Source of the DNA: Eledone cirrhosa
Lineage: Eukaryota
NCBI GenBank assembly: GCA_964016885.1
Contig: OZ024764.1
Location: 9,610,001-9,674,000 of the forward strand
Reading direction: 5' to 3'
Length of the DNA stretch: 64,000 nucleotides
Positions 45,967 to 62,986 of this stretch are shown piece after piece. The notes below the pieces were generated by a model, which worked only from the letters and a program-made list of their open reading frames with translations, searched no databases and was not told where the DNA came from. The translations under genes were made by a program, and so were the position numbers. Every line of letters starts with the position of its first letter. The first letter of the stretch is position 1.

Positions 45967-46021
<55 letters not shown>

Positions 46022-46057
46022 CATATATATGTATATATATACATATATATACATACA

Positions 46058-47690
46058 TCGGGAATAGTTGCTGAGATGCTGAAGGCATCAGGGGACGTAG
46101 GCACTAAACTGGTTGCACGCATAATCAATCAGGCTATATATGGTGGTGTCATACCCAAAGACTGGTGCAGCAGTATTCTCATAAATTGCTACAAAGGTAA
46201 AGGGGATGTTTTGGAGAGGAGCAATTATAGGGGTATAAAACTGATAGATCAGGTTATGAAAGTGGCAGAAAGGATTTTAGCACAACTAATTAGAGAAAGG
46301 GTCAAACTAGATGAGATGCAGTTTGGTTTTGTGCCTGGGAAGAGTACAACAGATGCCCTCTTCTTGGTGAGACAAATGCAAGAGAGGTTCTTAGAGAAGA
46401 ATAAGCCACTATACTTGGCCTTTGTTGACCTAGAGAAGGCCTTTGATAGGGTACCCCGATCTGTCATCTGGTGGTCCCTAAGGAAGCTGGGTGGGAATGG
46501 CTTGTAAGGACAGTGCAAACTTTGTACAGAGGTACTCTCAGTAAAGTCAGGGTAGGAATGGAGTTTAGTGAGGAATTCCAGATACAAGTAGGAGTACATC
46601 AGGGTTCGGTCCTCAGCCCGCTCTTGTTCATTATAGTCCTCCAAGCCATAACAGAGGAGTTTAAGACTGGCTGTCCATGGGAACTTCTCTATGCTGACGA
46701 TCTGGCTCTTATGGCAGAATCAGTAGAGGAGCTAGAGAATAAATTCCGGCTATGGAAACAGCAGTTGGAAGCAAGAGGACTGAGAGTAAATCTAGCTAAG
46801 ACAAAAGTGTTGATGAGTAGAAAAGAGGACAAAACCCTGATTCCGTCAGGGAAATGGCCATGTTCGATATGCAGAAAAGGAACTGGCATAAATTCTATAA
46901 AATGCACACAATGTAGGTCCTGGGTACACAAGAGATGTAGCGGGATAGCAGGCAAACTAACAGGTAGGGAGAAATATGTATGCAGTAGATGTACAGGGAA
47001 ATTAGACAGTAGAAGTCGCACTGATAGACACATTTTTCAAATGCGAGAGGGCGCTATAGAAGTGGTGGATAGCTTCCGGTACCTAGGAGATCAGATTAGC
47101 ATGGGAGGAGGGTGTTCCGAGGCCATAGTATCTAGAATAAGGACGGGTTGGAAGAAGTTTAGGGAGCTGCTTCCTCTGTTGACGAAGAAGGGTTTCTCCC
47201 TGCGTACGAAAGGCCGGTTGTATGATGCCTGTGTGAGGAGCGCGATGCTGCATGGTAGTGAGACATGGGCAGCTACCGCAGAAGATATGCGACGGCTGGA
47301 GAGAAATGAGGCAAGCATGCTCCGTTGGATGTGCAGTGTAAATGTGCGTGAACGACCCAGCATAAATGTGTTGAGAGAGAAACTGTGTCTGAGAGGGATA
47401 GAATGTAGTGTACGGGAGAGGAGACTGAGGTGGTATGGACATGTGATGCGCATGGAGGATGACCGATGGGTGAAGAAGTGCCAGGAAATGCCAGTTGAAG
47501 GAAGACGTAGTAGAGGTAGACCACGAAAAACATGGGCGGAGGTGGTGAGAACAGACCTCAGATCATTGAAGCTCACGGTGGAGATGACGAGGGACCGTGA
47601 CGAGTGGAGAGATGCTGTGCTGAATAAGACCCGTCCCACCCTTGCAAGCAGGGAAAAGCGGACGTAAATGATGATGATGATGATGATGAT
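46058..47690 (+). pseudogene. 5'-truncated RTE LINE reverse transcriptase, one frameshift (about 46490)
   Basis: [56 protein letters not shown] and GRPRKTW motifs, with an (ATG)n tail at 47668-47690. Confidence 0.95.
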
Positions 47691-55836: not shown

Positions 55837-56027
55837 TAGCGAATGAAAAGTGGTAAGGAACCAGGTGGACCATAACGCACCAAAGTACTCAATACTTAGG
55901 GTAGTAGAGTGGGTAATAGGAGTAAGTAAGACCCCGACGGCTGAGCTCAAGCCGTCTCGACGGCTAATTCTGTACAGAATTAGCCGTCCAAACGGCTTGA
56001 GCTCAGCCGTCGGGATCTTACTTACTC

Positions 56028-56030
<3 letters not shown>
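55837..56030 (-). mobile_element. Family E palindromic element
   Basis: Homologous to 21624-21816. Confidence 0.88.
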
Positions 56031-56444: not shown

Positions 56445-57021
56445 TTATTATAAAATAACAGGAGGCTGGACTGGTGTAATTCCTTAAACGTTTATTATAC
56501 TATGAACATTTCAATGACTGGGTTCAGTATGAATCCGGTGACATCGTCAGGTATTCCAAAATTTATCCAACAAAGGAATATAACAGTTGAAGGCGGCCAC
56601 CGGACTAGCAACTGTTAATTTTTGGCTGCCTTCTTGTCTTGGGCATCTCTCTCTGATTTTCAGCCCCTTGGATTGTGTCTATTATATTCCTTTGTTGGAT
56701 AAATTTCGGAATACCTGATGATGTCACCGGATTCATACTGAACCCAGTCATTGAAATGTTCATAGTATAATAAACCTTTAAGGTTTATCATATTATTATA
56801 TTAGTGAATTGGCAGTATCGGTGGAGGGTCGGACTTGCTTTCCAGCATAGTTACGTCCCTTTACGATATGAGTTCAAATCCCGCCGAGGTTAACTTTGCC
56901 TTTCATCCTTACGGGGTCGATAAAATAAAGTACCAGTAATGTACTGGGATAATTGCTGGCCTTGTGCCAAAAGTAGAAAGAATTATATTAACACCAATCC
57001 AGCCTCCTCTTATTTTATAAT
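56445..57021. mobile_element. Palindromic twin-hammerhead element, family I, right arm interrupted by an S2 SINE
   Basis: Arms at about 56445-56583 and 56681-56785 plus 56990-57021. Hammerheads at 56497-56554 (-, CTGACGA) and 56711-56768 (+; ATAC/GTAT, CTGATGA 56715, GAAA 56753, ATGTTCAT), followed by AATAAA. Confidence 0.85.

Positions 57022-57557: not shown

Positions 57558-57565
<8 letters not shown>
57176..57565. mobile_element. Family B variant: inverted tail fragment plus + strand arm with hammerhead at 57457-57527
   Basis: GTAGGAGGTGAGTTTTATTG at 57176; CTGATGA 57465; GAAATGCGCATA 57508-57519. Confidence 0.8.
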
Positions 57566-62235: not shown

Positions 62236-62394
62236 ATAGGAACGAGTAGGACCCCGACGGCTGAGCTCAAGCCGTTTCGACGGCTAATTCTGGACGTCGG
62301 GGTCCTACTCGTTCCTATTACCCACTCTACTACCCTAAGTATTGAGTACTTTGGTGCGTTATGGTCCACCTGGTTCCTTACCACATTTCCTTCG

Positions 62395-62396
<2 letters not shown>
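62236..62396 (+). mobile_element. Family E element with partial palindrome deletion
   Basis: Homologous to 3920-4112. Confidence 0.85.
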
Positions 62397-62436
<40 letters not shown>

Positions 62437-62501
62437 ATAATAATAAATGCGAAGACTAAAATCCGAAGAGGGCTCGATAAGGATAAATATATATATATAT
62501 A

Positions 62502-62930
62502 TATGATATTAAATAAATGGAAACTATATTTATAAAACCATATTTATTTCGTTATATATATTTCAGGGATATCATATTAACAATATGTTATGCCTTCTTC
62601 AGACAAAATACAATATAAACAGTCTTATAAATAAATAGATACGACATACCTTTCAATCACCTTGCATTTAAATCACCAAATGCAAGGTGATTGAAAGGTA
62701 TGTCGTATCTATTTATTTATAAGACTGTTTATATTGTATTTTGTCTGAAGAAGGCATAACATATTGTTAATATGATATCCCTGAAATATATATAACGAAA
62801 TAAATATGGTTTTATAAATATAGTTTCCATTTATTTAATATCATAAATATACTCCAAATACTTGTTGAGTGCTTTTATATCAGTTATAAATATTTACTCG
62901 TTGTTAACCCAACAATTTAAATATAACTTT

Positions 62931-62933
<3 letters not shown>
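62502..62933 (+). mobile_element. Palindromic twin-hammerhead element, family D (related to C)
   Basis: Near-perfect arms at 62502-62669 and 62678-62845. Hammerheads at 62545-62610 (-) and 62737-62802 (+; TATTTTGT/ACGAAATA, CTGAAGA 62745, GAAA 62783). Tail hairpin at 62850-62871. Confidence 0.9.

Positions 62934-62986
<53 letters not shown>

Follow-up and report, generated by a model that had tools for sequence, protein, structure and literature searches.

Two matching bulged hairpins and the insertion ends of Hydra-type Penelope-like elements in Eledone cirrhosa

The insertions that prompted this study lie in a 64,000-nt stretch of the Eledone cirrhosa genome (contig OZ024764.1, positions 9,610,001 to 9,674,000, hereafter the window), where they form asymmetric palindromes within (TA)n runs. 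Judged from their sequences, the families concerned are 5′-truncated insertions of autonomous Hydra-type Penelope-like elements (PLEs) and not separate small elements. These elements carry two matching hairpins of the form RCTC-stem-UN-GAGY, and the insertion ends are located 3–9 nt upstream of each, which suggests that each hairpin probably positions a reverse transcriptase (RT) starting there. An initial annotation of the window had described the first hairpin as a conserved terminus signal, and its account did not include the second. The new part is the duplication of the hairpin and the ability of its two copies to predict both ends, while the tail and the two start sites of PLEs were already known.

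Insertion ends and the two hairpins

The order within a unit is hammerhead, hairpin 1, 35–70 nt, hairpin 2, ATG, an open reading frame (ORF) with RT and GIY-YIG regions, and the 3′ untranslated region (UTR), with units arranged in tandem. Hairpin 2 is formed like hairpin 1 and is located 57–91 nt downstream of it and 20–65 nt before the ATG, both hairpins lying within the 5′ UTR. It is seen in read-through copies only, as GCTC-CA-atac-TG-TT-GAGC in family D, GCTC-CTAC-tccc-GTAG-TA-GAGC in family E, and GCTC-CT-taac-GG-TT-GAGC in family B. Searches for read-through copies with hairpin 2 followed by the ORF gave 264 matches for family B, 500 for family E (some counted twice), and 118 for family D. 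A two-hairpin pattern blind to family returned 893 matches compared with 0 in the control, and among 30 loci read from these matches, hairpin 2 was present in all 30, at least one upper pair in 26, and a Hydra-type N-terminus after it in 27. The stretch between the two end positions is what is referred to here as the tail; its length equals the hairpin spacing, which was 71–91 nt in this genome and 57–83 nt in the metagenome loci described below.

The family D insertion illustrates this arrangement. Its tail-less inverted arm (62502..62669, minus strand) has its last matched base 5 nt before hairpin 1, followed by the (TA)n target, and is joined head to head, through a junction (62670..62677) that differs between all copies examined, to the tail-bearing arm (62678..62933, plus strand). 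The latter is a 5′-truncated pseudo-long terminal repeat (pLTR) matching the pLTR of the full-length copy L357. It contains a minimal type I hammerhead, read directly from the sequence (62737..62802, plus strand), with a core comprising CTGAAGA (62745–62751) and GAAA (62783–62786), a palindromic stem III loop, and a predicted cut after 62794; the hammerhead is mirrored on the other arm. Hairpin 1 (62851..62870, plus strand) consists of ACTC, the CAA-atac-TTG upper stem and loop, a TT bulge, and GAGT. The remainder of the tail (62871..62933, plus strand) ends 3–7 nt before hairpin 2, which is itself outside the insertion. The (TA)n target run extends over 62934..62980, with a second run at the other end at approximately 62487–62503.

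Tail-less arms stop 3–9 nt before hairpin 1, and tail-bearing arms stop 3–9 nt before hairpin 2. When ends were mapped by exact matching, 477 arms were assigned an end, which fell at a TA run in 204; 102 of these were within −10 to −2 of hairpin 1, 85 were within −10 to −2 of hairpin 2, and 17 were elsewhere. The modal last matched bases relative to hairpin 1 and hairpin 2 were −5 and −3 in family E, −5 and −7 or −3 in family D, and −4 or −7 and −4 to −9 in family B. None of the 72 family D ends fell between hairpin 1 and position −8 of hairpin 2, despite the TA-rich tail. A cleaner sample of 84 family E arms was collected with an anchor upstream of the hairpin, the hairpin itself not being used, and by eye 50 of them ended 2–9 nt before hairpin 1 and 34 were tailed. 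Judged by eye, the single arms near 57565 and 57633 also terminate in TA runs where expected. In every case, the ends overlap the (TA)n target by 1–3 nt of T or A. The endpoints at TA runs are mostly clustered before hairpin 1 or hairpin 2. The annotation's placement of the short-arm end about 2–10 nt before the hairpin in each family was borne out in families B, D, and E, with looser ends in family A and no hairpin in family F. The “short arm” is a misnomer for the tail-less arm, which can exceed 1 kb.

All 44 inverted pairs of family E consisted of one tailed and one tail-less arm (43 by script and one by eye); a few pairs with two tails occurred among loci selected by the hairpin (L043, L139, and L067). 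In 33 of 35 pairs, the two arms belonged to a single subfamily (21% expected), and the mean number of arm differences per 44 nt was 2.1 within insertions compared with 5.8 between them. At 24 family D junctions, the arm with the greater 5′ reach was the tail-less one in 15 and the tailed one in five, the two being equal in four, mostly with an overlap of 0–3 nt or small insertions. Among 88 junctions from four families, the tail-less arm was longer in 19 and the tailed arm in 12, while 28 were blunt and 29 unclear; the loop had zero bases in 11 of the 88. At L098, approximately 1.1 kb is present in the tail-less arm alone.

Conservation of the hairpin and assignment to Hydra-type elements

The six hairpin sequences cited in the initial annotation were all found in the window, as TACTC-TGC-cat-GTA-TT-GAGTA in family A (1658–1678), TACTC-CAG-9nt-CTG-TT-GAGTG in family B (6866–6892, minus strand), TACTC-CA-6nt-TG-TT-GAGTG in family C (27511–27532), TACTC-CAA-atac-TTG-TT-GAGTG in family D (62850..62871), CACTC-TACT-acccta-AGTA-TT-GAGTA in family E (4040–4065), and the GCTC/GAGC variant of family G (33904–33924). 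The TT bulge does not apply to family G, which has TA, the window copy being mutated. A strict hairpin pattern matched 10 times in the window. When the 3.0-Gb genome was scanned, YACTC-N8-16-TTGAGTR gave 115,632 matches (58,577 + 57,055) compared with 6,841 (3,532 + 3,309) in the reversed control, and the exact family E hairpin gave 30,326 compared with 0.

Covariation was assessed in 50 sequence clusters located downstream of hammerheads, for which upper-stem pairing was not required. Upper-stem pairs 1–3 were paired in 46, 36, and 32 clusters, with shuffle means of 33.9, 24.3, and 19.2 (p ≤.0001); these counts retain about three probable chance clusters and one mis-parsed cluster, and the shuffle takes no account of kinship. 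A register shift of +2 still gave 32 at position 2. Upper pair 1 was C-G in 25 clusters and U-A in 18, and the base pair of the stem was G-C in 33, A-U in 15, and A-C in two. A quick RT tree, comprising 25 elements and no outgroup, required five switches in the U-A/C-G state of pair 1, and strong branches forced four of these. Alignment with MAFFT left the stems of 36 hairpins out of register, and the covariation is based on the cluster pairing counts and the pair 1 switches. With pair counts above the shuffles and repeated switches at pair 1, the upper stem indeed differs in sequence yet stays paired, as the annotation had proposed.

Other parts of the original description were modified. The TT bulge was the commonest form (33 of 50 clusters) but not a constant one (TA in nine, TC in six, and CT in two), so that the bulge is better written UN. 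Of the proposed consensus YACTC…GAGTR, the core held, as RCTC…GAGY and then RCT, but the outer Y and R showed no regular pairing. The hairpin has a length of 16–36 nt, and the spacer within RCTC…GAGY ranges from about 8 to 28 nt, with the upper stem covarying. It had been placed in every family; it was present in most, but family H (40553–40829) has a degenerate form and family F (56485–56780) has none. The predicted fold of the read-through copy L357 shows hairpin 1 of family D as drawn, with a z-score of −3.0 for the 150-nt region. In family E, the pairing between hairpin 1 and hairpin 2 in the best predicted fold of L356:1270-1410 may represent a switch between two forms. On this comparative evidence, the hairpin is genuine and covarying, a cis element that occurs clade-wide in a retrotransposon class already known.

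Long copies continue upstream into a PLE reading frame, with intact ORFs of 800 aa in family B, 717 aa in family E, and 737 aa in family D, and family A has the same kind of N-terminus. The B, D, and E ORFs contain G(L/I)YRDD, a C-terminal IY..Y(I/V/F)G region, and DKT, together with RWT (B), RWR (D), and RWR (E); RWK occurs in L429. By eye, CxCx5C linkers were recognized as CNCRDRSKC, CNCPDRSIC, and CNCRIKNKC, with CxxC (CDLC or CNLC) and CxH (CKH or CLH) near the C-terminus; CCHH is absent. Pfam gave a weak GIY-YIG match on the family E fragment (E 0.069) and no GIY-YIG match on protein P0001, PF26215 was found in most of 18 protein homologs, and a PDB search with the Hydra-type protein profile returned no matching chain. 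The insertion target is (TA)n. The available text of PMC8557442 gives for the Hydra clade a C-terminal GIY-YIG, RW(K/R/T) and DKT motifs, a CxCx5C linker without CCHH, a hammerhead, and a (TA)n target. The elements were assigned to the Hydra type because their motifs match this list, length excepted: Hydra elements are stated there to be “generally <3 kb,” whereas the repeat units here are 3.5–3.9 kb, with 3,531 bp in family E, about 3,748 bp in family D, and 3,918 bp in family B (L096 being a family B locus). In family D, L357 has the layout of inverted tail-less arm, pLTR, ORF, pLTR, and tail. L356 and L360 consist of units in tandem. At least four family E units are arrayed in tandem at each of G000:C1:91476611-91487267 and C1:437200343-437210965, and the E units of L356 are 99.97–100% identical with intact ORFs, so that family E looks recently active.

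An inverted copy and a one-sided tail are already known for PLEs from the portions of PMC8557442 and PMC3846280 available. The traits of endonuclease-containing PLEs found here are partial tandems forming pLTRs, an inverted 5′-truncated copy, and a one-sided tail; the 30–40 bp given for that tail differs from the 57–91 nt here. Naiad PLEs are characterized by an N-terminal endonuclease and the lack of a canonical hammerhead; a Naiad PLE was rejected, as the endonuclease is C-terminal, hammerheads are present, and the 3′ end of Naiad_Obim has no hairpin. Retrozymes and miniature inverted-repeat transposable elements, for which a family without an ORF and with two fixed ends would be expected, were also rejected, as were Helitrons, since families A, B, D, and E continue into ORFs of their own and the inner ends at the insertion centers vary.

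Homologs of the B protein were then used to scan metagenome contigs, yielding 76 loci. The annotation had suggested looking for the hairpin downstream of hammerheads in autonomous elements, and it was present at 24 of the 46 hammerhead-like sites followed by 110 nt of sequence, at +49 to +66, compared with 1.6% of shuffles and 3.2% of background windows. In the E. cirrhosa genome, two other hammerhead-bearing repeat types had the hairpin at 0 of 6 and 0 of 13 sites. Among 21 loci with an N-terminal match, the script found both hairpins before the ORF in six, one in seven, and none in seven, several of these being rearranged; the list of two-hairpin loci holds seven (L154, L157, L167, L181, L185, L202, and L207), with an offset ORF start in L202. 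The ends at these loci were −6 and −3 in the inverted pair of L216, −4 in L155, −3 in L176, and −6 in L167, and those of L151, L182, and L202 agreed with the rule by eye. Tail-less ends also occurred in the sense orientation after an ORF (L167, L176, and L216). An extra short stem ending in GAGT was noticed about 24 nt past the hammerhead core and upstream of hairpin 1 in one subgroup (L159, L167, L184, L186, L187, and L209).

In the available part of PMC8557442 File S7, the hairpin was recognized by eye in four of six Hydra consensuses, namely in Hydra-2_Amil and Hydra-2_Ajap, as two 5′-end copies in Hydra-1_Ajap, and in imperfect form in Hydra-1_Crog. These include coral and sea-cucumber elements, and the hairpin motif thus appears to be conserved from this genome to those animals. 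A stem in Hydra-1_Amil was rejected as an instance of this hairpin, being a different stem located further upstream.

Proposed twin priming and its alternatives

Synthesis must begin at the tail end. Since this end has the same offset from an uncopied hairpin as the tail-less end has from hairpin 1, the simplest reading is that synthesis begins at the tail-less end as well. The ends, the pairs, and the junctions would be accounted for by two cDNAs that are copied from a single RNA, one for each target strand, and become joined where they end distally. In the proposed mechanism, the endonuclease would cut both strands of a (TA)n run, and each free 3′ end would pair with a short UA in a single read-through RNA, one before hairpin 1 and the other before hairpin 2. 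Each paired 3′ end would prime a cDNA, with an RT dimer possibly holding both hairpins, and both cDNAs would be extended 5′-ward on the same RNA, usually halting early, near the hammerhead. The cDNA ends would then be joined by 0–3 nt of microhomology, or one would fold back on the other, producing a head-to-head repeat that is tailed on one side only. Closure of the center by fold-back of either cDNA fits as well, yet two starts would still be needed. We consider it slightly better than an even prospect that the hairpins form such a two-site ruler, in which a putative RT dimer on both hairpins of one RNA primes both (TA)n strands in a programmed form of twin priming. The cis signal that the annotation had suggested, serving either RT binding or internal initiation, is consequently retained for initiation with twin priming, given hairpin 2 at the same offset, while RT binding is putative.

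Several observations weigh against this interpretation. Of the 477 mapped ends, 273 were at non-TA positions, mostly reflecting subfamily differences against exact matching, and were left uncounted. Family A is looser: its 30 anchor hits comprised 12 tailed arms, 11 tail-less arms with ends spread over −18 to −5, one interrupted arm, and six hits on copies of a single duplicated tail-less site, and its hairpin 2 is found only in reduced form (GCAC-TCTCT-GTGC). Family F has no RCTC/GAGY motif, and one family (L429, L438, L449, and L453) has no regular hairpin 1. Of the 46 metagenome hammerhead sites, 20 had no hairpin within 110 nt, several being tail-less ends or other elements, and two had only a different stem, at +24. 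The hairpins are weak, with only family D below −2 in z among the families folded, and the best predicted fold of the family E region pairs hairpin 1 with hairpin 2. The family D junction sample was picked by likeness to the window copy, and post-insertion deletion at palindrome centers could alter which arm appears longer. Finally, the direction of synthesis is deduced from the ends alone.

In L1 twin priming, two primers from opposite target strands use one RNA, giving an inverted 5′ part and a microhomology junction; the internal position of the second start varies, and there is no overlap between the two cDNAs. In the present elements, by contrast, structure fixes both ends, and the overlap of the arms is almost complete. 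An RT-bound stem-loop that fixes the start or stop of synthesis is familiar from the boundary and anchor elements of telomerase RNA, the 3′ stem-loops of stringent long and short interspersed elements, and the epsilon signal of hepatitis B virus. Those elements are single, whereas here the hairpin is duplicated and each copy marks one end.

The closest comparison is the anole PLE PAc (Poseidon of Anolis), for which the available portion of PMC11167929 describes RT starts at two internal sites matching the tail borders, nicking and extension of both target strands, a predicted dimer, an AT-rich target, and an uncleaved hammerhead RNA as template. The two ends at the tail borders and the AT-rich target are shared with PAc, as would be, under the proposed mechanism, the cutting and extension of both target strands and the use of uncleaved hammerhead RNA as template. 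That study, the only one in vitro, identified two starts but no signal conserved at them. However, the PAc start is within one AC-rich stem-loop inside the ORF, with a tail of 30–40 nt, whereas the present elements have two matching bulged hairpins in the 5′ UTR, 3′ of each end, and a tail of 57–91 nt. The RCTC/GAGY hairpin was not found in the RNA letters available from Fig. S1 of PMC11167929; these letters contain GAAAG…ACAAC twice, about 33 nt apart, which may be another duplicated signal at the PAc starts. The main text of PMC8557442, in the part available, gives no cis signal for the tail of the Hydra clade and does not contain “hairpin” or “stem-loop,” and “hairpin” is also absent from the available passages of PMC3846280, PMC13282606, and bioRxiv 10.64898/2026.07.22.740005. 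The literature search returned no description of the duplicated motif, which subscription papers, Repbase entries, figures, or preprint supplements could hold.

An alternative in which the hairpins act in DNA yields the same two ends. Here, the GIY-YIG endonuclease would recognize them in cDNA or in a tandem or circular intermediate and cut 3–9 nt 5′ of the hairpins, and the cut ends would then be joined to (TA)n. The tail is ascribed to endonuclease-mediated resolution in the available text of PMC8557442, recognition by the Drosophila Penelope endonuclease requires the tail, as cited in the available part of PMC11167929, and pairing data alone do not separate RNA from single-stranded DNA. We nevertheless regard this as unlikely, as a spacer varying between about 8 and 28 nt, within which the upper stem covaries, is a poor fit to a double-stranded site, fixed sense-strand G-U wobbles in hairpin 1 of family A and hairpin 2 of family B mildly favor RNA, and in the only PLE assayed in vitro, RT starts at the borders of the tail (PMC11167929, available portion).

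The initial annotation had also offered stop-at-hairpin fold-back synthesis, here taken to involve priming once, at the tail end, after which the cDNA would fold back and serve as its own template up to the hairpin. Self-priming has been proposed for PLE inverted junctions in the available text of PMC3846280, and such a process would explain the pairing of tailed with tail-less arms, their common subfamily, and the five family D junctions with a longer tailed arm. However, it predicts that the tail-less arm never extends further 5′, yet that arm did so in 15 of the 24 junctions, and at L098 about 1.1 kb is found in that arm only. It gives no account of the tail end, which cannot be a stop and has the same offset from an identical, uncopied hairpin, nor would it suit arms ending 3–9 nt short of the stem instead of at its base, or the sense-direction tail-less ends after an ORF. 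This suggestion is quite improbable as the cause of the ends. Least credible, to the point of being very improbable, is that UA microhomology to (TA)n alone sets the ends, with the hairpins serving translation control, hammerhead folding, or the like. While every end shares T/A bases with the target and both hairpins are located in the 5′ UTR, hairpin 2 shortly before the ATG, many nearby TA sites are unused, as in the empty interval of family D, and the offset is constant across families otherwise unrelated in sequence.

If priming at two hairpins is correct, both the PLE tail and the head-to-head inverted pLTR would find an explanation in programmed twin priming; the origin of the one-sided tail and inverted repeats has been a puzzle for about twenty years. 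The hairpins would then constitute a portable cis signal for a telomerase-related RT and would define a minimal RNA for such an enzyme targeting (TA)n. This signal would be readable from sequence, two hairpin positions predicting both ends across distant families, and it provides a short diagnostic motif for a clade with more than 100,000 copies in this genome.

Hammerheads and other elements of the window

A canonical minimal hammerhead core was read from the sequence in families B, C, D, and G. An Rfam scan gave no match in the window at gathering thresholds and none for the family D pLTR at E ≤ 1. The family E hammerhead, recognized by eye, is a variant whose core is U3-A8 (TTGANAA, the seventh base being free); its stem II is long and carries a large loop, and its stem III loop is palindromic. 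This hammerhead is located about 110 nt upstream of hairpin 1 in L034, L038, L050, L060, and L063 and also occurs in L356. The short family E copies L033, L036, L042, and L059 start at or beside its predicted cut site.

Family E is further represented by plus-strand insertions at 3920..4112 (hairpin 1 at 4041–4064) and 62236..62395 (hairpin 1 at 62324–62347), minus-strand insertions at 21625..21817 and 55839..56028, and a single tail-bearing arm at 36460..36555 (minus strand). Family A has a plus-strand insertion at 1524..1721, with hairpin 1 at 1659–1677 and a zero-loop junction at 1586/1587, and a single tail-bearing arm at 39728..39858 (minus strand). Both family B insertions are on the minus strand, one at 6809..7222 with hairpin 1 at 6867–6891 and the other at 20456..20864 with hairpin 1 mutated. 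The family C insertion (27238..27601, plus strand) has hairpin 1 at 27512–27531, and L436 is a read-through relative with hairpin 2. The family G insertion (33852..34160, minus strand) carries the GCTC/GAGC form of hairpin 1 at 33904–33924. Family H, missing from the annotation's list, is present at 40553..40829 (plus strand) with the degenerate hairpin ACTC-GTGT-agg-ACAC-CT-CGGT; its tail-less arm stops 5 nt before this hairpin, the 3′ strand of which is CGGT in all copies seen. Family F (56485–56780 and 57000–57021) is a palindromic hammerhead element whose tail has no RCTC/GAGY hairpin, and L390 may contain a degenerate copy of it further downstream.

The window also contains a 3′ fragment of a different PLE (17927–18625), which encodes a GIY-YIG domain (Pfam E 6e-05) and has a hammerhead and tail of its own but lacks the hairpin, and a related tail remnant at 39606–39687. 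Minimal hammerheads of other repeat families, likewise without the hairpin, are located at 1905–1938, 2230–2263, and 39963–39996. Broken reading frames labeled by eye as RTE-like non-LTR retrotransposons occupy 46000–47670 and 13900–14360, and long minisatellite arrays extend over 21900–26980 and 7900–11100.
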